A DNA stretch of 46,766 bases. Source: Candidatus Heimdallarchaeota archaeon. GTDB lineage: Archaea > Asgardarchaeota > Heimdallarchaeia > Heimdallarchaeales > Heimdallarchaeaceae. The notes under the pieces are model-generated. The model saw nothing but the letters and a program-made list of their open reading frames with translations. It ran no database searches and was not told where the DNA came from. The stretch spans positions 1 to 46,766 of the forward strand of contig JAEOTE010000033.1 of the NCBI GenBank assembly GCA_016839945.1, read 5' to 3'. A program made the translations under genes and the position numbers. Of this stretch, positions 27,837 to 40,200 are shown piece after piece. Numbering within the stretch: the first letter of the stretch is position 1; each line of letters opens with the position of its first letter.

Positions 27837-27949
27837 GATATCTAAAGAAGGAAGAACAAAATCCTTCATCCAATTTTTTTTTTGTTTTAAAATGCGTAAG
27901 TAAAATTTAATATATAGCTTTTAATCAGTACTTCGTATTAGTGATTGTT

Positions 27950-28963
27950 ATGAAAATAAGAATAGGAATAAATGGATTTGGAAGAATAGGACGAGGAATT
28001 TTTCACGCAGGATTTAACAATGAGAATCTTGAATTTGTGGGCATTAATGACATCACTGACGCTAAAACTCTAGCACATATGTTAAAGTATGATAGCGTGC
28101 ATGGACGATTTTCACAGGATGTAGAGTACACAGAGAATTCTCTAATCATTAATGGAAAGGAGATACCAATTTCCAAGGAGAGAGATCCAGCAGATATACC
28201 ATGGGATAAATGGGAAGTTGATTTAGTTTTTGAATGTGTAGGAATATTTAGAACTTATGAGTTAGCTTCAAAACATCTAAAGGGAGGAGTTAAAGGAGTC
28301 TTACTCTCTGCACCAGATAAAGGAAAAGTCACTCCAATTCCAACATTTGTTATGGGAGTTAACGAAGAATCTTATGAACCTGAACAACATAAAGTAATTT
28401 CTAATGCAAGCTGCACCACTAACTGTTATGCTCCAGTTACAAAAGTTATCGATGATAATTTTGGGATAGAATCAGGTTATATGACAACCGTTCATTCTTA
28501 TACAACAGATCAAAAAATCCTTGACTTACCTCACAGTGATTTAAGACGTGCAAGAGCTGCAGCTTTGTCAATGATACCAACATCAACAGGAGCTGCTACT
28601 GCTGTAGGAAAAGTCCTTCCCCATTTGGAAGGAAAACTACAAGCAATTTCAATAAGAGTACCCACACCTAATGTTTCATTAATAGATTCTATTTACAGTT
28701 TAGAAAAAGAAGTCACAAAAGAGGAAGTGAATAATGCATTTATTGATGCGTCTAAAACCAAATTAAAAGGCATACTAGACGTATCTAAAGAGCCACTAGT
28801 TTCATATGATTATAATGGAAATCCATATTCTGCAACCGTTGATTTACCTTTGACTATGTCTTATAAGAATCAAATTAAGATTGTTGCATGGTATGATAAT
28901 GAGACAGGTTATTCACACAGAATGATTGATTTAGCAAAATATGTAATGAGTAAAGTAAGTTAA
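27950..28963 (+). CDS. gap: Glyceraldehyde-3-phosphate dehydrogenase, type I (bacterial/eukaryotic class)
   Basis: GINGFGRIGR, YDSVHGRF, SNASCTTNC, MTTVHSYT, DLRRARAA, IPTSTGAA, AWYDNE. ATG 27950 is preceded by GTGA (ORF track gives GTG 27941). Confidence 0.96.
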   Translation: MKIRIGINGFGRIGRGIFHAGFNNENLEFVGINDITDAKTLAHMLKYDSVHGRFSQDVEYTENSLIINGKEIPISKERDPADIPWDKWEVDLVFECVGIFRTYELASKHLKGGVKGVLLSAPDKGKVTPIPTFVMGVNEESYEPEQHKVISNASCTTNCYAPVTKVIDDNFGIESGYMTTVHSYTTDQKILDLPHSDLRRARAAALSMIPTSTGAATAVGKVLPHLEGKLQAISIRVPTPNVSLIDSIYSLEKEVTKEEVNNAFIDASKTKLKGILDVSKEPLVSYDYNGNPYSATVDLPLTMSYKNQIKIVAWYDNETGYSHRMIDLAKYVMSKVS

Positions 28964-29391: not shown

Positions 29392-29407
29392 CAAAAAAAG
29401 AAAAAAA
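29392..29407 (-). terminator. Oligo-T terminator of the 29432-36467 operon
   Basis: Plus-strand caaaaaaagaaaaaaa reads as a T-tract on the minus strand about 25 bp after the stop codon. Confidence 0.4.
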
Positions 29408-29431: not shown

Positions 29432-32400
29432 TTAACCAGCTCTCATAGGAGCTCTACTTCTAAATTCATAGTAGATTTTGGTTATTTCTCTTACCATTTC
29501 CTCATTGAATGTAACTATTAGTACAGGTTCTCCGCTAGGAGCTTTATGTCCAAGAAAACCTTCTTCAATTCCATCTCTTGTTCCTAACATTACTGTTAAT
29601 TGTGGATCGTCCTTTACTGTAACATTTCCCATACTTAGCAGTTTATTTAACACAGCTTTATCTGCATCAGAATGAGATCCAGTATTAGTAACTATTTCCA
29701 GTTTTCTACCAAACTCATCAAGAAAGTCTGCATCTATCCAGTGTAATAAGGGAGATATGACAGTCGCTGAAGATTTAGTATGTCTTAATAATGACATCAT
29801 TGCTCCATAAACCTGTTCATTACCTGAAATTAACCAAATGTCTTCGATAGGGCTTGGTTCAATTCCTTTTCCTAGAGACAGAACATTCTTGAGTAATTTC
29901 ATTGATTCTCCTGTTGCCGCTAAAACCACATCAATCTTACTTGGGATAGCATTTAATATTCCTGTGATGTTTGCATCGACGTTTTCTATGTCGTTTTGTG
30001 TTCCTTTAATGATTTCTTCCTTGAAGGCCATTATTTGTGAGTTGTATTGTTCTCTTTGAGTGTCTGCTATTTGTGAATCTTGCAAAGCTTTATCCAATTT
30101 CTCTTTTAGAGAATTCAAAAATGAGCTAAACAGATCATCAATAGCTTTTTCTAGATTCTTAAGATCAGTTCCTATAGTTTCATTACCAGAAGTTATAGCT
30201 TCTGTAAGAGTGTCCCTTGTTCCTTGAATGCTTGTTACTAGTGCTGAAGAATTTGCATCTGAATTTGTAATAAAACTGTTAATCTGATGTGTAATGTTCA
30301 GTTCATAATCGTTCTTCTCCTTCTCAAACTCTTCTTGAATTGAAGTTACATTATTACTAAATTCAGTGGCCATTTGTTCATGTGTGTTTTCTAAATCCTT
30401 ATGGACACCAGCATACATGTTGTCTATTTCGCTTTGAGTTTTCTCTTGAAATTCCTTAATAGAAGTTGTAAGTTTATTACCAAAAGCTTTGGAATCAGTA
30501 TTAACCCACTTTGGATAATCTTTGGATAATTTCTGTAATTCTCCTTTTGTTTGAGTTATAGCTTCATCCAACAGTGAGGATTTTTCAGGAGATACAGTTA
30601 ATTCTGCCATTAATCCTTCAGTACTTTCCAAAAATTGTTGAACTTCTTGTTCAATTAAGCTGTCAATTTCATTTTCTACTGCTGCTGTTTGAGTACTATA
30701 ATTTGCTGCAGCTTCATCCAAAGTAACTGAAACATCAGTATCAAGTGCATTTTTTGCGGAATCAAATTCACCTTGTAATGATTCCATTGTTCCATCCATC
30801 GATGAAATAACACTTTTCACTAATTTTGAATGTTCATCAATATTTGTTTTAAGAGTATCTTGAAGGTTGGTCATAACATCTTTATTATTGTTAGTCATCA
30901 AGGACAATATTTCTTCTTTTGAAGCTTGTAATGCAGCTAAGCCTTCTTCAATATGCAAGTGCATACTTGTTTTTTCTCCCTCTTCTAAATCTTCCCCTGC
31001 AGTTTCAGGGGCACTTATTAGACCTTCTAAGGAGTTTTTGATTGAATTTGTAACACCAGAAAATGCTTCAGATTCTGTTCCAACGACATCTTTTAGTTTT
31101 TTAGTACTTGTGTTTTGAATTTCATTAAATTGTTCTTCATAGGTTCCATATGTATCTACAATTGTATTCTTCATTTCGTTTAATGAAGTTGCAAATTGAT
31201 TACTTATTTCCTTCCTGGAGCCTTCTAATGTTTGACTCATTGATTGAAGAGTTCTATCTTTAAACTGTACCAAATCATCTAATCTCGAATTTATTTTCTC
31301 AAAAATATCAGTAGATAAGTTAGTCATAGAGCTTGAAAAAGTATTTATCATTTCTTCAATTTTCGATCCGACATTTTCTTTAATCAGTTGAATGTCTCTA
31401 TACATACTACCTATCTGATTCGCCATTCTAGGACCTTCATCCTTGCCAAAAACTCTCTGAAGCTGTTTAGTATCTAATCCCTGGAAAGAACTGTTTATTT
31501 CTTCCATTGTTGCTATAGCTGATTTGAATTGATCCTCAAGCTCCTTCAATCTTTCAAGACTTGCTTGATAGTTAATTTGAACAAGATTTGGAACTTGATC
31601 TCTGATATCTCGTCCTTTTTTTGAGAAATCATCAGTGAATACTTCTACATCATTCCTAAATTGTTCTTCTTTCTCGCTTACTAGGCTTTTGATGGATTCA
31701 TCATTGGTTTTTACATTATCTTCAATGTTTTTAATTACAGAACTTTTCAGCTCTTTCAAATGAGAAGTAAAACCTGTATTATATTCATCATTGGTTGTAG
31801 TGAATTGATTTATTCTGTTTTCTAGAGACTTTTGATATTTGTTAGTTTTTTTAGTTAAATCGCTTATAATGACATTTGTAGATTCTTCAAAAGCTGCCAT
31901 TATCTCTGAGATAAACAATTTAATTTGGTCACTCACTTTTTCAATAGAAGAAGACAAACTCTCTTCGAATAAATTAAATCCATTATCTATTCCTTTCTTA
32001 AGTAAAGCTAAAAGATTATCACTATTCTTCTTAAAATCACTAAGATAAGTAGTCAAATCTTTTCCAAGATTGATTTTCATTTCTTCTGTTTTTGCTTCAG
32101 TTTGGGTTATTAATTCTCCCAATTTCTCAACAGAATCAACCTTGGTTTTATTGAGTAGCTCAACAAACTGGTTTTCATTATTCTTTAGAATATTAACTGC
32201 TGTTTCCTTGGATTTATCTATGGATGTTCTAATTCTGTTTGTTGTTGCTTCTTCCAATTTCTTTAATTCTTCATTAAGGGATGTTAGAATCTGTTTTACT
32301 TTCTCTTGGTATTCATCTAATTTAGTATTATAGTTTTCAACTATTTTGTTCACAGTACCTGATAATTTCTTAGATGAATCATGTGATATTGTATTGGCAT

Positions 32401-33226
32401 CAGAAGATAATTTAACAACAGAATCATTTGTTATTTTATCTATAGTATTTTTTCTAGCTTCTGCAGCTTCTAAGAATTGTTGGCTTTGAATTGATAAACT
32501 CTCTTTTATGCCTTCCACTTTTTCCAAAACTGCATTAAGCTGAATATCTGTTCTATTATTGTGTTCTGCTTGTAGAGAACCTAATGTTTCCTCAATTTTA
32601 ATCTTGAAGTTTTCATGATGCTCTCCAATTTTATGAATTGTTGTATCAAAGGATGAAAGTACATTTTCTTTTACTCTCTGAGCAGCTTTAGCGATTACAT
32701 CACTATTTGATTCTGCCAGTGTTGAAGTTTCAGTATTTACTTTTCCTACAATTTCAGATACTTCTTTTTTACTTGAAGAAATAACTTCTGCTAAAGAGTC
32801 TAAAAATTGTTTGGATGTACTAGTTACATCTGCAGCATGACTATCTGCATTTTGAGTGATAGTATCATGAAAAGAAGCTAATTGGGATCTTAAATTTTGC
32901 ATAGTTTTGTTCCAATCAGCTTTAACATCATCACTCAAAGCTTTCAATTCATTTTCTAAACGTTGTGATACATCTTCAGTTAGTTTAATTTGTGGAGGTA
33001 AGGGGATGAAATAGGGAGTTCCTTCTTCATTCTTTGCTTTAATTTCTTTGACATATCCTTTACCTACTAACTTGTTAAGAGCACCCCTTATTGAATCAAC
33101 AGGTTGTTTGTAATATGATTGTATTTGACCCATTGTTCTAGAGCCAAACTGAACAATTGTTGCATAAACCTGTATTTCATCTTCGGTTAAACCAATTTTT
33201 TCTAATGTTCCTTCCATTTTAATCAC
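29432..33226 (-). CDS. TrmB-like protein: N-terminal wHTH, ~1040-aa helical/coiled-coil insert, C-terminal PLD-fold (TrmB effector-like) domain
   Basis: N-terminus LEKIGLTEDEIQVY...ALNKLVGKGYV...YFIPLPP matches the TrmB HTH. C-terminus IWLISGNEQV...TKSSATVISP...MLGTRDGIEEGFL matches the TrmB C-domain pattern. The middle is amphipathic helix. Confidence 0.75.
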   Translation of the reverse strand: MIKMEGTLEKIGLTEDEIQVYATIVQFGSRTMGQIQSYYKQPVDSIRGALNKLVGKGYVKEIKAKNEEGTPYFIPLPPQIKLTEDVSQRLENELKALSDDVKADWNKTMQNLRSQLASFHDTITQNADSHAADVTSTSKQFLDSLAEVISSSKKEVSEIVGKVNTETSTLAESNSDVIAKAAQRVKENVLSSFDTTIHKIGEHHENFKIKIEETLGSLQAEHNNRTDIQLNAVLEKVEGIKESLSIQSQQFLEAAEARKNTIDKITNDSVVKLSSDANTISHDSSKKLSGTVNKIVENYNTKLDEYQEKVKQILTSLNEELKKLEEATTNRIRTSIDKSKETAVNILKNNENQFVELLNKTKVDSVEKLGELITQTEAKTEEMKINLGKDLTTYLSDFKKNSDNLLALLKKGIDNGFNLFEESLSSSIEKVSDQIKLFISEIMAAFEESTNVIISDLTKKTNKYQKSLENRINQFTTTNDEYNTGFTSHLKELKSSVIKNIEDNVKTNDESIKSLVSEKEEQFRNDVEVFTDDFSKKGRDIRDQVPNLVQINYQASLERLKELEDQFKSAIATMEEINSSFQGLDTKQLQRVFGKDEGPRMANQIGSMYRDIQLIKENVGSKIEEMINTFSSSMTNLSTDIFEKINSRLDDLVQFKDRTLQSMSQTLEGSRKEISNQFATSLNEMKNTIVDTYGTYEEQFNEIQNTSTKKLKDVVGTESEAFSGVTNSIKNSLEGLISAPETAGEDLEEGEKTSMHLHIEEGLAALQASKEEILSLMTNNNKDVMTNLQDTLKTNIDEHSKLVKSVISSMDGTMESLQGEFDSAKNALDTDVSVTLDEAAANYSTQTAAVENEIDSLIEQEVQQFLESTEGLMAELTVSPEKSSLLDEAITQTKGELQKLSKDYPKWVNTDSKAFGNKLTTSIKEFQEKTQSEIDNMYAGVHKDLENTHEQMATEFSNNVTSIQEEFEKEKNDYELNITHQINSFITNSDANSSALVTSIQGTRDTLTEAITSGNETIGTDLKNLEKAIDDLFSSFLNSLKEKLDKALQDSQIADTQREQYNSQIMAFKEEIIKGTQNDIENVDANITGILNAIPSKIDVVLAATGESMKLLKNVLSLGKGIEPSPIEDIWLISGNEQVYGAMMSLLRHTKSSATVISPLLHWIDADFLDEFGRKLEIVTNTGSHSDADKAVLNKLLSMGNVTVKDDPQLTVMLGTRDGIEEGFLGHKAPSGEPVLIVTFNEEMVREITKIYYEFRSRAPMRAG

Positions 33227-34680
33227 TAATCATATAATTCGTTTTTAATAGATTCTATATTTCTTTCTAATTTTTCTAATCTACTTATTATGTCCTTACG
33301 TATTTTTTCTGATTGTTCTGCAAGTCTAAATTGTTCTTTTGCTTCTGCTTCTAAGTCAGAAATAGTGGTTTCTTGTGTGCTTGCTATCTGACCTTTAGCT
33401 GTGGAAGCAAGTGTTGAAATTTCTGCAGTACTATCTTTTTGAACTGATTCTACTCTGGCTTTAATTTGATTGCTTGTTCTTTCTATAGATGATAGTAATT
33501 CTTGAGCTTCTGCTTCTAATTCAGAAACATTTTTCTCTAAAGTTGAAGTAGATTGTTTTTCCAAAGAGGAAACTTGATTTGTAAATTTATTCATCATATC
33601 TGACATATTAGTTGATAATTCATCTTGTTCTTTAGCCAAAATTGTTTTTGATTCGTCCTTTACAGCATCTGATTGACTTGAGAATGAATTCAATATGTCA
33701 TCTACATCTTTTCCAAATTTGTTTTCGAAACCATTTAGGTCTGTTTTGTACTCCTCAAGTTGTTTGCTTGTTAGAGCTTCATAAGCTTCTATCATTGATT
33801 GTTTTGAAGTATTAAAATTAGTCATAGCTACTTCGTTAACATCAATCATACCTTTTTCATATTCAGCTAGTACTGTTTGTATCTTTGCTATTTCGTCAAC
33901 AAGATACTTATCCATTGTATCTGAAACACCTGAAAGCTCTGTTTGAATTCTTTGAACAGCATTAGTAACAAGCTGTCCTAGTTCATTTTTAATTCTGTTA
34001 AAACTTTCAAAGATAGATTCCATGTTTTCTGTGAGTTTGTCACCATACTCCGCTCGAAGATGTTCTATTGATTCTAACATAATATTTTCAGTTATGTTGA
34101 TATTACCCTCGAGCTCCTTTTTCATGTCATCAATGTTTTTGGAAAATGAAGAAATTTTATTTTCCTTTATCTCTCCAACATTAGATTTGACACTAGTTAT
34201 ATTTTTCCTGAATGTGTTTACTTGATCATTAGCAAGACGTTCAATATCTAGATTGTGAGAACTTAAAATTGAAGCTATATTTTCTTCAAAGGTTGAAGAG
34301 TAATTATCAAATTTTGTTTTATAATCAGTTAATAACGAGACTATTGATTCTTTAAGATTTGAAATACTCTCTGTTGTTTTGTTGAATTCTACTTGAACAG
34401 ACTCATTTTGTGAACTTGTCCATTCCTCTATTAGATTCACATCTTCTGAAGTATTTTTGTTAATGATATTATCTAACGTTGTTTTATTTTCTTCAATTAA
34501 ATTTCTAAGGTTCTCATTTAATGTAATAAACTTATTTTGTATTAGTGTTGAAAGTGTTTGATAATATTGTTGTAATTCTTGTAGATTCTCTAAAGATTCC
34601 TTGAAAGAAGTTATCTCACTCTCAAAATTTTCAATTTCTTTTCTTATCTTTTCTAAATCTTTTGTTACTCTCTCTGACAT
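33226..34680 (-). CDS. All-helical coiled-coil/apolipoprotein-like rod protein (484 aa)
   Basis: No Pro, no Cys, no TM segment, continuous amphipathic pattern. Preceded by SD AGGTGAGG. Its TAG stop overlaps the next GTG start. Confidence 0.75.
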   Translation of the reverse strand: MSERVTKDLEKIRKEIENFESEITSFKESLENLQELQQYYQTLSTLIQNKFITLNENLRNLIEENKTTLDNIINKNTSEDVNLIEEWTSSQNESVQVEFNKTTESISNLKESIVSLLTDYKTKFDNYSSTFEENIASILSSHNLDIERLANDQVNTFRKNITSVKSNVGEIKENKISSFSKNIDDMKKELEGNINITENIMLESIEHLRAEYGDKLTENMESIFESFNRIKNELGQLVTNAVQRIQTELSGVSDTMDKYLVDEIAKIQTVLAEYEKGMIDVNEVAMTNFNTSKQSMIEAYEALTSKQLEEYKTDLNGFENKFGKDVDDILNSFSSQSDAVKDESKTILAKEQDELSTNMSDMMNKFTNQVSSLEKQSTSTLEKNVSELEAEAQELLSSIERTSNQIKARVESVQKDSTAEISTLASTAKGQIASTQETTISDLEAEAKEQFRLAEQSEKIRKDIISRLEKLERNIESIKNELYD

Positions 34681-34688
34681 TTCCTCAC

Positions 34689-36455
34689 CTATATTTCTTC
34701 TAATTCTTTTTCTATATTCTCCATAGATACATCCTCAACCTCTGGTGGTTCAGGAGCTATTTCTTCAATTATTACCTCTTTTTCTTTTTCATATTTCATT
34801 GAGTTGAAGTAATTATGATGAATACTCTCTGCATCATACAGACTTATTGCTTTTTTGCGTATTCTTTCAAAATTGCTCTTATCCCCTACATTCGTATAAC
34901 AATCTAAACACCATTTGAGATAACCTCTAACTGCATACTCACTTTTTTCTACAGGGAGAGATGCAGCTAATTTCTCAAATTGGTCAGCTGCTCGTGTAAA
35001 GGATCTTTTAGCTTTCAATTCTTCTTCTACTGCGTCATAATACGAAGCAGATTTTAAATAAAGACGAGCTGCGAAATAATAGTTTTTCTCTTCAAATTCT
35101 CGAGCAATTTTTTCGCAAAATCCTCCTGCTTGTTCTAGTTCATTTATATGTTCAAACTGTTCAGCATTAATAATGGAAAAATCATAAGCTCTTTGAAACA
35201 TTTCTTTTTGTATGCATAAATTAGCAACTGCTTGTATTTTTGAAGCTACTGCAAAATATGAAAGTCTGTCTCTAATTTTGAAAGCTAATTGTTTTGCAGC
35301 TTCTATGAATTTAGTTGAAGGTGCAATATTGTTTTCTAGATTCTCCAATGTTGAATCTAATTTTACCATAAGTGTTGTTAAAGGACCAAACAACTTTAAT
35401 CTAAATTTAAGTGTTGATAATAATGATTCTTGAACTAAGCGTGCATTGTTTTCTCCTAACCATAGAAAGCCTTTTTCTTCTAGAAGCTTTAAAGTAGCTA
35501 AATTCACATAGGCAGTCAATTGTTCGATTGGAAAGAGATTTTCATTATATGAAGCCATTTCATAAAGAGCTTCTTCTTCTTCATCAGTCAAATCAAACAA
35601 AGATTTTAGATCTCTTTCAACAAAATTATCTAATCCCAAATCTGAGTTAATAAATGAGACACCCAGATTTAAATCAAAAAATGTTCTTTGACTATTTGTC
35701 ACTAAATCCAATACACCTTTGTTTAATAATTGAGGAGCTACCCTACGAAGATAAATTTCAGTTTCTGATACTGTTAAGGGTTCAACTCTAAGTATATTAG
35801 AATAAGTAGTTAGGTATTTTTCATAATCGAAATCAAAAAGATATTCCTCATTGAAAGCAAATACGACGAACATGTTATATCCTCTTTGATTTAATTCTTT
35901 GATAATAGAAGCAAAGATTGGGTAGAATTCATGGTAGTCAATAAATTTGAAATAATGAAGATTATCAAAGAAAAAGTATAATGTTGTATCAGTCTCTTGC
36001 AATTTCTGATTGATTTTGTCCAGATTTTCAAGGAAACGATTCACATAATATTCTGTATATGATTGACCTGAAGGCAATTTCACTTGCTCTTTTAATATTG
36101 GAAGATCATCTCCTAGTTTCTTTTTTCCAACTTTTTCAAGTAAGGATCTCCATTCAGGAGAACTATCATCGATGGCATTCTTCCATTCTTGAAAGAATTT
36201 TGCGAGTGAATCTTCTTCTGGTATTATATTCATAATCTGTGCTACGTCTTTTCTTCCAGTTACTGTTGTTGACAACTTCTGTAGCAATGAGCTTTTTCCT
36301 GTTCCTTCATCGCCAACAATTAAAATTGAGCCAATTTGAGTTTCTCCCCTCTTCTTTTTATCTACTAGGTCACTGAAAGTTTTTATGTGATCTCTTAATC
36401 CATAAAAATCATGAGGTTGACATGGTTGGAATAGCTTATTTATATCTAGACTCAT
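34689..36455 (-). CDS. STAND/AAA_16-like P-loop NTPase with wHTH and C-terminal SNAP/TPR-like helical repeats
   Basis: FYGLRDHI pre-P-loop, Walker A GDEGTGKS, Walker B FFFDNLH, LRVEPLT..ET..YL, wHTH-like LKLLEEKGFL, and C-terminal AARLYLKSASYY / FTRAADQFEK repeats. Likely ATG 36455 after SD GTGAGGA (ORF track gives 36467). Confidence 0.75.
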   Translation of the reverse strand: MSLDINKLFQPCQPHDFYGLRDHIKTFSDLVDKKKRGETQIGSILIVGDEGTGKSSLLQKLSTTVTGRKDVAQIMNIIPEEDSLAKFFQEWKNAIDDSSPEWRSLLEKVGKKKLGDDLPILKEQVKLPSGQSYTEYYVNRFLENLDKINQKLQETDTTLYFFFDNLHYFKFIDYHEFYPIFASIIKELNQRGYNMFVVFAFNEEYLFDFDYEKYLTTYSNILRVEPLTVSETEIYLRRVAPQLLNKGVLDLVTNSQRTFFDLNLGVSFINSDLGLDNFVERDLKSLFDLTDEEEEALYEMASYNENLFPIEQLTAYVNLATLKLLEEKGFLWLGENNARLVQESLLSTLKFRLKLFGPLTTLMVKLDSTLENLENNIAPSTKFIEAAKQLAFKIRDRLSYFAVASKIQAVANLCIQKEMFQRAYDFSIINAEQFEHINELEQAGGFCEKIAREFEEKNYYFAARLYLKSASYYDAVEEELKAKRSFTRAADQFEKLAASLPVEKSEYAVRGYLKWCLDCYTNVGDKSNFERIRKKAISLYDAESIHHNYFNSMKYEKEKEVIIEEIAPEPPEVEDVSMENIEKELEEI

Positions 36456-36656
36456 TATAATCCTCACACAATACTAATTCTGTAATTGGTTTTTTCCCCT
36501 TATAAAAGATACGAATGTTTATTTTTGATAAAATTATCTATAATGCTCAAAATCAAAAATAGCATTTTTTTAGTAATCTCGAATGTCGAAAAAGATAAAA
36601 GGATTTAAACTAAGAAATTTATTAACTCAAATGCAGAGGTGTATGAATGACAATAG

Positions 36657-37088
36657 GTGAACATTTTGTTGTTTCCAGCAAGTTTGATAACCAGACAGTT
36701 GGAAGAAGACTATTCAGAAGAAGGGATCATCTTTGCGCAGAGGAGAATAATAGAGCTTGAAAATAATCTACTTTTTATTCAAGACATCCTGAATCAGAGT
36801 TTGCTTATCATATATAATCAGCTTAAAGATAAACAAAAGTCAATTTTCTATATAGCATCTAAATTACTGAAAAAGGACATTACTTCAATCAACAGACTTT
36901 CAGAGAAAATTGCAGAAAAAATGAATTTATCTTTTTCAACTGCAAAATGGAACATAACTAAACTCAGAGATTTAGGACTACTTGAAACAAATGGACAAAG
37001 AGGAAATATAAAAACTACAATTTCTTTAACTCAACTTGGATTCTCACTCTATTTAGCTCTCTCGCAAAGCAAAGAAAGAACCTTGTAA
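36657..37088 (+). CDS. Winged-helix DNA-binding protein, putative transcriptional regulator
   Basis: SINRLSEKIAEKMNLSFSTAKWNITKLRDLGLLE...ISLTQLG is a typical wHTH pattern. Confidence 0.72.
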   Translation: MNILLFPASLITRQLEEDYSEEGIIFAQRRIIELENNLLFIQDILNQSLLIIYNQLKDKQKSIFYIASKLLKKDITSINRLSEKIAEKMNLSFSTAKWNITKLRDLGLLETNGQRGNIKTTISLTQLGFSLYLALSQSKERTL

Positions 37089-37140: not shown

Positions 37141-38067
37141 ATGAAGGAAAAGCTAATTAGCTACAAAAAATCAGGAGAAATACTATCAAAAGCACTTGAT
37201 CATGCTGTATCTATAACAAAACCTGGGAAAAAATTTCTAGACATAGCTGAAGAAGTAGAAAATTTCATTCGAAAACATTCAGCTCAACCAGCTTTTCCTC
37301 TAAATATTTCTATTAATGAAGTTGCAGCTCATTACTCTCCTAAAATAGAGGATAGTAGTTTAATACCTGAAAAATCTATAGTAAAACTTGATATTGGGGT
37401 TTCAGTAAATGGATACCTAACTGATGCAGCAAGAACTGTTATTTTTGATAAGAAATGGAAGAAAATGAAAGATGCTGCAAAAGATGCTTTTGATATAGCT
37501 GTGATTGATATTAAACCTAATTCAAGTGTTTATACCATTGGAGAAACTGTAGAAAGCACATTGAAGAATAGAGGTTTCAAACCTATCGTAAATCTGAGTG
37601 GTCATCTTATGTTAAAATACAATCTTCATGGTGGAGTATCAATACCGAATTATAAAGTTCCAAAAAAGGCTAGAATGGATAATCATAAATTTATTTCAGG
37701 GAATGCATATGCAATAGAACCTTTTGCTACAACTGGAATGGGGAAAGTGTATGATGATGAAGAAGAAACAATTTTTCGTCAATTTAGAAATTTTAGAGAA
37801 GGATCTATTCCGAAAAATGTAGAAAATATTTACAATTATATTAGTGATAACTTTCATAAGTTACCCTTTAGTTGGAGATGGGTTTATAATGCAGGCTATT
37901 CAAAAAAAGAGATTTCTGATGCAAAACGAATTCTGATGGATAACCAAATTGTTCATGGTTATCCTGTTTTGATTGAGACGAAAAAAGCTCCTGTTACACA
38001 ATATGAAGATACTATTTTTGTTGGAAAGAATAAAATCTATCTCTTAACAAGATTAAAATCAAAATAA
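37141..38067 (+). CDS. map: Methionine aminopeptidase, type II (archaeal/eukaryotic)
   Basis: PAFPLNISINEVAAHYSP, VKLDIGV..NGYLTDAART, NLSGH, YAIEPFATTG, type II helical insert, YPVL, QYEDT. Confidence 0.94.
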   Translation: MKEKLISYKKSGEILSKALDHAVSITKPGKKFLDIAEEVENFIRKHSAQPAFPLNISINEVAAHYSPKIEDSSLIPEKSIVKLDIGVSVNGYLTDAARTVIFDKKWKKMKDAAKDAFDIAVIDIKPNSSVYTIGETVESTLKNRGFKPIVNLSGHLMLKYNLHGGVSIPNYKVPKKARMDNHKFISGNAYAIEPFATTGMGKVYDDEEETIFRQFRNFREGSIPKNVENIYNYISDNFHKLPFSWRWVYNAGYSKKEISDAKRILMDNQIVHGYPVLIETKKAPVTQYEDTIFVGKNKIYLLTRLKSK

Positions 38068-39015: not shown

Positions 39016-40200
39016 TTAGATGATTAAATCTTCTAAATCTCTTGGATATGGAGTTATTCTTTCATTACCATCTTCTGTTATTATCACCGTATCAGAGTGT
39101 CTGAATCCTCCAAATTTATATTCATAGATACCAGGTTCACATGTAAACACCATACCAGGAAGCATAATTTCATCGACACCAATATCTAGAAATGGTGCTT
39201 CATGTCCCTCCATTCCTATAGCGTGACCTGTATGATGTTGAGTTAGATGCTTCAATCCAGCTTCTTTTATCACTTTTATTGCTGCATTGTCAACTTCACT
39301 GCAGGGAACATGAGGTTTAAACGCTTCTAACGCTGCATCTTGAGCTTTTTTCATTACATCAAAATATCTTCTTTGTTTTTCATTGGGTTCTCCAATAAAC
39401 ATTGTTCTTTCCAATTCAGAAAGATATCCTGAAACATTTGCTCCAGCACCAGTAACAAGAACGTCTCCTTTCTTAAACACAGTCTTCTCAATAACAGAAT
39501 GTGGTATAGCTGACCATTTACCTATTTGTCCTCTATAACCAGCACCTGCAGGTAAAATTCCTCTAGGTACAAAACCTTCTAAATCATCTAACATTTTTTT
39601 AGATGCATCAATGCAAGCTTTTAGAGATACTTCTACTTCATTCTTACCTTCAGCTGTATACTCCTGTAAATATCTGTGTGCTAAATCACCATATTTAGCA
39701 GAAATTTTAATTAAACGCAACTCTTCTTCATCTTTTATCTTTCTTATTTCTTGAATCAAAGTTGAATGAAGCTCAGTTTCTACCTTGTTTTCCAATAGTT
39801 CTGTTAGCTTAGGTCCACTATATCCCCAATAACTTGAGAAAGAAGGAGCTTCCATACCTATTTTCTTCTTTGTAATTTTCCTTTCTTCTAACCTTTCAAT
39901 GAAAATCTTAGCAGGATGTTTCAAATCAGGATATTCGAAATATATTTCTCTTTCTACCCAAGGAATTTTTTCGATTAGATGCTCTTGTTCTAATCTTGGA
40001 ACATAAAACCAAGGCTCATCTGAAACAGGGAGTACAAATGCTATAGGTCTCTCTGTAGGAATAAAATGGTAACCAGTCAGGTAGTAAATTGATAAGGGAC
40101 TGAAAAAAACCATTGAGCCAAGTTCTTTTTCTTCAGAAAACTTTCTGATTCTTTCTATTCTCTTAAGATGATTTTCTTTTGAAATTGTATATTTATTCAT
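39016..40200 (-). CDS. Xaa-Pro peptidase family (M24) protein
   Basis: Creatinase-type N-domain IYYLTG, RKIKDEEE, GYLSELERT, HHTGHAIGMEGHE, FTCEPGIY, GGFRHSDTV. Confidence 0.88.
   Translation of the reverse strand: MNKYTISKENHLKRIERIRKFSEEKELGSMVFFSPLSIYYLTGYHFIPTERPIAFVLPVSDEPWFYVPRLEQEHLIEKIPWVEREIYFEYPDLKHPAKIFIERLEERKITKKKIGMEAPSFSSYWGYSGPKLTELLENKVETELHSTLIQEIRKIKDEEELRLIKISAKYGDLAHRYLQEYTAEGKNEVEVSLKACIDASKKMLDDLEGFVPRGILPAGAGYRGQIGKWSAIPHSVIEKTVFKKGDVLVTGAGANVSGYLSELERTMFIGEPNEKQRRYFDVMKKAQDAALEAFKPHVPCSEVDNAAIKVIKEAGLKHLTQHHTGHAIGMEGHEAPFLDIGVDEIMLPGMVFTCEPGIYEYKFGGFRHSDTVIITEDGNERITPYPRDLEDLII

Follow-up and report, generated by a model that had tools for sequence, protein, structure and literature searches.

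A three-gene operon of Asgard archaea encoding a STAND-type NTPase and two long hendecad helices, and its possible role as a DNA-anchored rod assembly

Identification of the operon

An operon of three genes, encoding a P-loop NTPase of the STAND type and two very long helical proteins, was identified on contig JAEOTE010000033.1 of a Candidatus Heimdallarchaeota archaeon (assembly GCA_016839945.1). The stretch analyzed, hereafter the window, comprises 46,766 nucleotides (nt), and all positions given without another locus name refer to it. The operon most likely builds a rod assembly that is anchored on DNA and whose state is set by a STAND-type nucleotide switch, a reading that is tentative and in which both binding and hydrolysis are predicted from the domains encoded. 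The genome that contains the window is 3.0 Mb in size, is distributed over 186 contigs, and is 88% complete; the window has a GC content of 31%, and close homologues of the proteins are named Candidatus Heimdallarchaeaceae or Heimdallarchaeota in the source records. An earlier reading of the letters alone (the sequence-only reading) had proposed three co-oriented genes that look translationally coupled, and this operon was confirmed. All three open reading frames (ORFs) are present on the minus strand, in the order NTPase, rod, and giant, with spacings of 8 nt and 0-8 nt (lengths in amino acids, aa; AF2, AlphaFold2):

34689-36467, minus strand: gene 1, the NTPase ORF, 592 aa, an effector-less STAND-type P-loop NTPase (Pfam, AF2 model, Foldseek)
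33226-34680, minus strand: gene 2, the rod, 484 aa, a hendecad helix free of proline and cysteine (Fourier period, phase track)
29432-33226, minus strand: gene 3, the giant, 1264 aa, a TrmBL2-type protein with a helical insert of about 990 residues (Pfam, fold comparison, arm lengths)

The giant protein

The giant carries a winged helix-turn-helix (wHTH) at its N-terminus and a phospholipase D (PLD)-like domain at its C-terminus, which are separated by two helical arms:

33011-33205, minus strand: TrmB-type wHTH, residues 8-72 (Pfam PF01978, E 1.7e-10, 41 bits against a cut-off of 25.6)
31442-32914, minus strand: N-arm, residues 105-595 (hendecad, phase of about -1.1 residues held from 83 to 570)
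31427-31459, minus strand: apex loop QRVFGKDEGPR, residues ~590-600 (signal collapse and phase change)
29945-31441, minus strand: C-arm, residues 596-1094 (hendecad, with a second discontinuity at ~865-900, P880 and P905)
29435-29944, minus strand: C-terminal PLD-like domain of the TrmBL2/TrmB type, lacking the His and Lys of the HKD motif, residues 1095-1264 (AF2 and Foldseek)

Both helical proteins are built on an 11-residue repeat (hendecad, with core positions a-d-e-h) and not on heptads. Fourier analysis of hydropathy gave a single sharp peak at 3.66-3.67 residues (11/3), with a power of 334 in the rod and 638 in the giant, and the same period recurred across the lineages in each of 17 giants and 15 rods (power ~330-710, compared with ~17 in shuffled sequences). 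The power at the heptad period of 3.5 was ~0-29. The hydrophobic residues I, L, V, and F were located at the a-d-e-h positions, with occupancies of 0.73, 0.66, 0.53, and 0.44, respectively, in the N-arm of the giant. The sequence-only reading had described the giant as a TrmB-coiled-coil-PLD protein, of which the wHTH, the long helix, and the PLD-like fold all stand, whereas an ordinary heptad coiled coil does not (the period of 3.67 is that of a hendecad) and the catalytic His and Lys of PLD enzymes are lacking.

The helical part of the giant is interrupted near its middle. In a sliding-window phase track a single register was maintained from residue 83 to 570, the power decreased to 5-8 at residues 578-600, and a new register began at residue 611, such that the collapse coincides with the conserved FGKDEGP loop. 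The lysine of this apex, K595, is invariant within the order, and 14 of the 16 orthologues from three-gene loci have Lys at this position (alignment of 17 sequences). A 490-residue hendecad helix in one unbroken register is an unusual protein architecture. The lengths of the two arms were measured between conserved residues, for the N-arm the Trp that follows the wHTH and the apex Lys, and for the C-arm that Lys and the Ile-Pro before the C-terminal domain, and gave the following values by locus:

Window: N-arm 490 aa, C-arm 500 aa
L025: N-arm 471 aa, C-arm 471 aa
L023: N-arm 520 aa, C-arm 512 aa
L038: N-arm 575 aa, C-arm 587 aa
L033: N-arm 588 aa, C-arm 591 aa
L021 and related: N-arm 597 aa, C-arm 602 aa
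L029: N-arm 637 aa, C-arm 628 aa
L030: N-arm 444 aa, C-arm 476 aa
L031: N-arm 775 aa, C-arm 777 aa

Across the 16 orthologues the arms co-varied 1:1 (444-777 aa; r = 0.993 over ten length classes), and they remained nearly equal in every lineage measured while the total length of the giant ranged from 1176 to 1806 aa. Close relatives are not independent in this comparison, and at least eight separate length changes affected both arms equally. This co-variation favors a fold-back rod. The giant probably forms an antiparallel hairpin of ~74-75 nm (490 x 0.15 nm), a pairing deduced from the arm lengths and the register, which would bring the wHTH and the PLD-like domain together again.

Conservation in the giant is highest in its two end domains, and the necks that adjoin both of them are conserved as well. 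The wHTH contains invariant R30, T31, G33, Q34, and Y38, its recognition-helix residues are conserved, and its segment has an isoelectric point of 8.1, whereas the remainder of the giant is acidic. The AF2 model of the C-terminal domain had a predicted local distance difference test score (pLDDT) above 80 for residues 1128-1264. Foldseek searches with this model returned TrmBL2 first (E 1.6e-9), followed by TrmB and the PLD nucleases Nuc and Zucchini. Alignment with VIA-align gave Z scores of 13.3-14.2 to TrmBL2 and TrmB (127-133 residues at 2.6-3.0 A) and of 14.3-14.7 to Nuc and NucT, a tie in which the whole domain was covered. The HxK(x)4D catalytic motif of PLD nucleases is not present, because Thr1211 and Met1213 (-7 and -5 from D1218) take the place of the HKD His and Lys, as do N/V and similar residues in orthologues. 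No PLDc match was found by Pfam on this domain at E <= 1. An invariant polar set in the domain consists of K1151, H1185, D1189, R1217, D1218, and E1221. Since both the wHTH and a non-catalytic PLD-like domain are retained, the giant is interpreted as a TrmBL2-type protein in which the inter-domain helix has grown to ~990 residues.

The rod protein

The rod contains neither Pro nor Cys in its 484 aa, in agreement with the proline-free helix of the sequence-only reading. Its repeat keeps one phase between residues ~50 and ~430, with the highest signal at the center. Because the register is unbroken and there is no central collapse, the rod is taken to be a single long helix of ~58-72 nm; a hairpin was considered and rejected, given that the hendecad signal peaks at the center without collapse. 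One stretch of the rod alone was conserved in the alignment:

33811-34098, minus strand: conserved central block, residues ~195-290 (L208, D257, E275)

In 15 orthologues, whose lengths span 425-770 aa, this block is located at 0.51-0.56 of the chain. A conserved center with equally long variable flanks fits either an antiparallel homo-oligomer or a central docking site. Profile comparison with hhalign matched rod residues 27-423 to residues 197-463 of the giant N-arm (probability 98%, E 1.2e-14, identity 8%), which is suggestive of a common descent of the two, a match that might also reflect the shared repeat type alone. Prediction of a complex between the full-length NTPase and rod residues 100-400 gave a score of 0.00, which counts neither for nor against an interaction.

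Several sub-threshold matches of the helical proteins to Apolipoprotein, ZorA tails, and similar helical proteins are attributed to the hendecad repeat. In NCBIfam, the SMC and Rad50 matches fell on the rod helix only and scored 15-17 bits against cut-offs of 567-1000. Candidate assignments to SMC, Rad50, ZorA, JetC, and LmuB-type proteins were rejected, as these matches were restricted to helical regions, look compositional, and were far under the NCBIfam cut-offs where such exist. A look-up of the rod in the ESM Atlas returned only generic helical clusters, all below 0.9, and the look-alikes carried ApoLp-III or Phasin domains.

The STAND-type NTPase

The sequence-only reading had described gene 1 as a STAND-like NTPase with a SNAP/TPR domain at its C-terminus, and this description held. 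Pfam detected AAA_16 (E 3.7e-12), and the following regions were delimited:

35778-36407, minus strand: NTPase (NOD) domain, residues ~21-230, with the P-loop at 52-59 (Pfam, alignment, AF2 model)
34800-35429, minus strand: C-terminal all-helical solenoid, residues ~347-556, alpha-SNAP/TPR-like (10 helices in the model; SNAP matches)

The glycines G52, G55, and G57 of Walker A (GxxGxGKS) and the D168 of Walker B are invariant across Asgard lineages, while K58 and R241-R242 are kept throughout the order. The AF2 model (pLDDT 85.8) runs from the NTPase domain through a helical domain, a small winged helix, and ten C-terminal helices to an unstructured acidic tail. Walker A and B motifs and the succession of NTPase, helical domain, winged helix, and C-terminal repeats are among the features by which STAND proteins are recognized, and these were found in gene 1. 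The top Foldseek matches of the model were Avs3, the STAND-TPR protein 6mfv, SAMD9, Avs5, MalT, NLRs, Apaf-1, the archaeal ATPases 2qen and 2fna, and ORC/Cdc6, with Avs4 also among them. Full-length alignments were obtained to Avs3, 6mfv, SAMD9, MalT, NLRs, and Apaf-1, with low TM-scores (~0.3) as expected for multi-domain proteins. No N-terminal effector or signaling domain was found, as only ~20 residues precede the NTPase fold.

The SNAP signal of the solenoid was weak but repeated. Pfam SNAP matched 9 of the 22 family members (best E 4.6e-6, with scores mostly below the Pfam cut-off) and did not match the NTPase of the window itself, and a profile of the solenoid searched against the PDB returned alpha-SNAP/Sec17 first (E 3.8e-4). 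The acidic unstructured tail (residues ~557-592; 34689-34800, minus strand) ends in a conserved I-E-K-E-L-(D/E)-(F/I) motif, which distinguishes the NTPases of Heimdallarchaeaceae from those of other families in the order, where it is missing, and which might serve as a short linear motif for docking.

The full-length NTPase family is sharply bounded and comprises ~30 clusters at 50% identity among 1.84 billion representative proteins. After a sharp drop in score, the next matches of the NTPase profile were generic AAA_16, nSTAND1, and ATPase_2 proteins, and the nearest outgroup NTPases include Mrr-STAND fusions.

Distribution and synteny

The window's genome contains a single copy of the operon. 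The three genes were present in 24 of 24 genomes of the genus and were adjacent wherever the contigs allow, and the operon was also found in three further families of the order (four in all) at ~20-25% identity. Identity decreased with taxonomic distance, from 61-92% within the genus to ~22% within the order. ORF maps of eight loci of the order showed a tightly packed arrangement of an NTPase of 556-595 aa, a rod of 427-484 aa, and a giant of 1241-1480 aa. The three-gene order recurred in five families outside the window's order (f9, f12, f20, f22, and f23), where the rods measure 425-770 aa and the giants 1176-1806 aa. The search for the same gene order in other genomes had been set beforehand as a test on which the proposed system could fail; the order NTPase-rod-giant holds across Asgard classes. 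Conservation of gene order over such large phylogenetic distances indicates that the operon is not due to chance. A profile search for the NTPase in 301 genomes of the phylum recovered it in 85, including every genome of several families, and all named homologues are from Asgard archaea (Heimdall-, Wukong-, Frey-, Hel-, Hermod-, Loki-, or Promethearchaeota). It was found in 0 of 19 genomes of family f17 and in 0 of 11 genomes of family f6. The genes that neighbor the operon differ between families. Judged by its copy number, divergence, and distribution in these genomes, the operon is a core, vertically inherited gene set and not a defense island.

Two variants of the arrangement were noted. 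In one genus of the same class (g14; L032, L035, L041, and L042), whose genomes are ~2.4-5.9 Mb in size and 4-6 Mb where near-complete, the NTPase and a 718-aa rod are adjacent, and a giant of 1539-1545 aa is located 8-18 kb away on the other strand. This genus also contains several paralogues (open frames of 727-813 aa and 1405 aa) with the PLD-like C-terminal domain of the giant (for example, G263:C1:887026-887529), which suggests that the rod-head family has expanded there. In the other variant (L036 2087-7349, family f30), a hendecad protein of 1110 aa, which begins with an HTH-like segment at its N-terminus, directly follows an NTPase of 636 aa. This two-gene locus has no separate rod gene, its Ile-Pro neck motif is not conserved, and its arms of 277 and 564 aa are unmatched in an alignment that is unreliable there.

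Proposed function and alternative explanations

TrmBL2 is an abundant chromosomal protein that coats double-stranded DNA (PMC3031468, PMC4877046), and it acts as a roadblock that positions the domain boundaries of Smc-ScpAB (PMC11840125). In the proposed assembly, the arms of the giant would pair in an antiparallel manner, and the wHTH and PLD-like domain would come together again as a TrmBL2-like head, located at one tip of the ~75 nm rod. By analogy with TrmBL2, this head would bind DNA with little sequence specificity. The rod helix (~58-72 nm) may form a symmetric, probably antiparallel, bundle via its center, or it may dock there onto the giant. The NTPase would hold a helical partner by its solenoid, and its nucleotide state would control assembly and disassembly. 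A likely role of such an assembly would be the long-range tethering, spacing, or bridging of chromosomal DNA. The sequence-only reading had already suggested a nucleotide-controlled scaffold attached to DNA, which we likewise infer; its other suggestion, a sensor-effector system, is disfavored by the single-copy, vertical, and, within the order, universal distribution of the operon.

Several points weigh against a DNA-anchored, nucleotide-switched rod. The residue that follows the Walker B D168 varies, being N in the window's family and D or E elsewhere (DN, DD, and DE), and hydrolysis rates may therefore differ among lineages. The two largest Asgard families sampled yielded only weak partial NTPase matches in 1 of 76 and 2 of 68 genomes, and the operon, which was not found in them, is not universal in the phylum. 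The link of the C-terminal domain to TrmB and TrmBL2 is drawn from the predicted fold and the N-terminal HTH; at the sequence level, a profile of the last 170 residues of the giant found neither TrmB nor PLD in the PDB, and these residues have no Pfam match. The equal arms would also be accounted for by two chains arranged as an extended antiparallel homodimer, each N-arm paired with the C-arm of the partner chain. The hairpin is preferred because of the break at the mid-point, which is the sole point in its favor. A second collapse at ~865-900 in the C-arm (30530-30630, minus strand) has no mirror break in the N-arm. Lastly, the length of the rod equals that of one giant arm only in the window's genus and not across lineages, which leaves a simple three-helix bundle of the rod on an arm unsupported. 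The rod as an equal-length third strand along one giant arm was accordingly rejected, since rods of 425-505 or 718-770 aa do not track arms of 444-777 aa. The prolines P880 and P905 at the second break are conserved within the genus, and the break may represent an elbow or a looped-out insertion.

The first alternative to a DNA-anchored rod is that the giant is an oversized transcription factor, that is, a TrmB-family regulator of specific promoters in which the long helices provide only oligomerization or a molecular ruler, with the NTPase acting as a MalT- or ORC-type co-regulator. This is rather unlikely. The TrmB HTH exceeds its Pfam cut-off and the fold of the C-terminal domain is that of the TrmB family, the invariant polar cluster of that domain might bind a ligand, the structural matches of the NTPase include MalT, and TrmBL2 itself also represses genes (PMC3031468). 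On the other hand, no known regulator requires 990 residues of register-locked helix with length-matched arms, and this helix has been kept over the whole phylogenetic range and has even grown to ~1550 residues. Furthermore, a second dedicated helical protein is co-conserved, and the neighboring genes differ between families, so that there is no conserved regulon nearby.

A cytoskeletal or membrane-associated scaffold, in which the hendecads form filaments like those of bacterial coiled-coil-rich proteins or cover lipid surfaces like the 11-mer helices of apolipoproteins and perilipins, and in which the wHTH has a minor or non-DNA role, is judged unlikely. Lipid-surface helices typically carry 11-residue repeats, Pfam Apolipoprotein matched several stretches with 48 and 79.6 bits, and the Atlas look-alikes noted above for the rod (all <0.9) carry ApoLp-III or Phasin domains. 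However, the Apolipoprotein scores are below the gathering cut-off of 90 bits. The arrangement of I, L, V, and F at the a-d-e-h positions is typical of a buried bundle core, and the length-matched arms indicate helix-helix pairing. The three products have neither transmembrane segments, as the sequence-only reading had noted (the highest 19-aa hydropathy mean is 1.28), nor a lipid-anchor signal, and the best-conserved parts of the giant are its TrmBL2-type end domains.

That the NTPase is a SNAP/NSF-like bundle remodeler, whose solenoid grips the bundles of genes 2 and 3 as alpha-SNAP grips SNAREs while nucleotide turnover disassembles them, is improbable as a separate explanation, although it might be a sub-mechanism of the DNA-anchored rod. 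Within the PDB, the solenoid is closest in sequence to alpha-SNAP/Sec17, close to half of the family members matched Pfam SNAP, and both neighboring genes encode proteins that form long helix bundles. Nevertheless, the scores are weak and mostly under the Pfam cut-off, and unrelated prokaryotic STAND proteins also carry SNAP-type TPRs (P0092). STAND NTPases are switches and not unfoldases, and no AAA+ D1/D2 ring was found.

Anti-virus defense of the Avs/STAND type, with the NTPase sensing an invader via its repeats and activating a PLD-type nuclease on the giant, is unlikely and in our estimate the least probable of these explanations: Avs3, Avs5, and Avs4 are top structural matches of the NTPase, the fold of the C-terminal domain ties with Nuc and NucT, the outgroup NTPases include Mrr-STAND fusions, and there are weak PADLOC matches to mad8 (E 1.9e-6, 25.6 bits), PtuA (to the NTPase, E 2.7e-4 to 4.4e-4), and the ZorA tail, but the operon occurs as a single copy in all genomes searched from the genus and the order, has a fixed gene order, and diverges with taxonomy, unlike patchy mobile defense islands, its flanks are housekeeping genes, Thr1211 and Met1213 replace the HKD His and Lys without any PLDc Pfam match, and the NTPase has no N-terminal effector. 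The PADLOC matches of the helical proteins (ZorA tail, which is probably compositional, LmuB, JetC, LeoB, and similar) look compositional, and no significant match to the PADLOC defense models was found among the operon proteins.

A more far-reaching version of the DNA-anchored rod, which is possible but doubtful, is a chromosome-organizing or tethering machine that is Asgard-own and independent of SMC. In such a machine, TrmBL2-type heads would be bound to DNA, fold-back rods of 75-116 nm would project from them, the second hendecad helix would link these, and a STAND switch with an alpha-SNAP-like grip would assemble and release them. If true, it would be a prokaryotic counterpart of eukaryotic long coiled-coil tethers or nucleoskeletal elements in the closest archaeal relatives of eukaryotes. 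With its 75-116 nm, a DNA-anchored rod would be comparable in scale to the cell body and to SMC/Rad50 arms, which would make it a concrete candidate for long-range DNA tethering, spacing, or attachment of the nucleoid to the periphery. Asgard archaea are at the center of the debate on eukaryote origins, and to our knowledge almost nothing is known of their chromosome organization beyond histones and SMC.

Gene starts, regulatory signals, and flanking genes

Features at the gene junctions and ends were as follows:

34681-34691, minus strand: NTPase-rod junction, with the NTPase TAG and the Shine-Dalgarno-like GTGAGGAA, then the rod ATG (sequence)
36500-36507, minus strand: candidate archaeal TATA box TTTTATAA, ~48 nt upstream of the probable NTPase ATG (read from the sequence)
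29393-29407, minus strand: T7-C-T7 tract, candidate archaeal terminator, 25 nt past the giant stop

The 8-nt gap between NTPase and rod and the Shine-Dalgarno-like sequence across the NTPase stop, which is spanned by AGGTGAGG, agree with the proposed coupling. At the rod-giant junction, the G of the rod TAG is the first base of a giant GTG. The overlap claimed by the sequence-only reading therefore exists, but the GTG is probably not the start, as the ATG at 33217 (9 nt past the GTG) agrees better with where the orthologues begin. For the NTPase, the ATG at 36455 (588 aa) is the probable start, because that Met is invariant in the alignment and the upstream GTG of the ORF lies inside a Shine-Dalgarno-like box, GTGAGGA, which resembles the box before the rod. 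The T-tract that had been noted after the operon is the T7-C-T7 tract listed above. A scan for bacterial-type promoters and terminators was uninformative for an archaeon (35 sites, compared with 35.5 in shuffles).

The operon is flanked by housekeeping genes, including a class I glyceraldehyde-3-phosphate dehydrogenase (GAPDH), an aminotransferase, and M24 peptidases. The GAPDH, of the bacterial/eukaryote type, is located just downstream of the operon (27941-28963, plus strand; Pfam Gp_dh_N E 3e-38 and Gp_dh_C E 3e-61), and a GAPDH-like gene occupies the equivalent relative position in a genome of another genus of the same family (L038 9704-10711). Two M24-family metallopeptidase genes are nearby (37141-38067, plus strand, and 39016-40200, minus strand). 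ORFs of 309-316 aa that resemble the 308-aa M24 gene, as judged by their sequence starts, adjoin the operon elsewhere in the order, downstream of the giant in L021 and L026 and upstream of the NTPase in L038. A divergent wHTH gene had been proposed to precede the operon; a divergent ORF of 143 aa is indeed present (36657-37088, plus strand), but its identity as a wHTH is weak, with matches to Fe_dep_repress, HTH_24, and HTH_20 at E 0.004-0.014, below the Pfam cut-offs. Since other families have different genes upstream of the operon, this ORF is considered to lie outside the conserved module.

Comparison with known systems

The sequence-only reading could match the operon to no named system, and none was found here either: the operon is not described in the literature that was searched in full text, and its combination of genes is unmatched in Pfam, NCBIfam, and PADLOC. 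A recent preprint on Asgard chromatin counts "TrmBL" proteins only at the family level.

The giant shares with TrmBL2 (TK0471/PF0496; PDB 5bpd, 5bpi, 5bqt, and 5box) and TrmB (3qph and 2f5t) of Thermococcales an N-terminal wHTH with an exiting helix and a PLD-like domain that matches over its whole length and lacks HKD. Like TrmBL2, it ends after the PLD-like domain, whereas TrmB differs by its sugar-binding barrel. TrmB and TrmBL2 are compact proteins of ~260-340 aa with a dimerization helix of ~30 residues, in contrast to the 1264 aa of the giant and its ~990 hendecad residues in two length-matched arms. Furthermore, the C-terminal domain of the giant has no detectable sequence similarity to theirs, and the giant is found only in Asgard archaea, where its gene is accompanied in the operon by those of a STAND NTPase and another helical protein.

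Gene 1 has the same order of P-loop, helical domain, winged helix, and solenoid as the STAND NTPases MalT, Avs, and Apaf-1/NLR and the archaeal ATPase_2/nSTAND1 proteins (2qen, 2fna, and 6mfv). It differs from these in that it lacks an effector domain, its solenoid is alpha-SNAP-like, its gene has a fixed place in an operon beside those of two rod proteins, and its inheritance resembles that of a core gene. Its likeness to alpha-SNAP/Sec17, which is weak, consists of an all-helical TPR-like sheet and of putative helical-bundle partners. Unlike in alpha-SNAP, the solenoid is fused to its own NTPase, and there is neither an NSF-type AAA+ ring nor a SNARE-like protein.

The giant may resemble SMC, Rad50, and MukB in that its termini are probably reunited by long intramolecular antiparallel arms with a specialized apex, and in that its likely substrate is DNA; its arm of ~75 nm, and up to ~116 nm in the 1806-aa orthologue, is within the SMC/Rad50 range. 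In contrast to SMC and Rad50, the head of the giant consists of a wHTH and a PLD-like domain instead of an ABC ATPase, and the ATPase is a separate STAND protein. Its repeat is hendecad and not heptad, its apex is a short FGKDEGP loop with neither a hinge nor a CxxC zinc hook (0 Cys), and there is no kleisin. The parts of the operon thus belong to known superfamilies (STAND and TrmB/TrmBL2), and what is new is their combination, in which a predicted DNA-binding head split by two matched hendecad arms is joined by a second helix and an effector-less switch ATPase.

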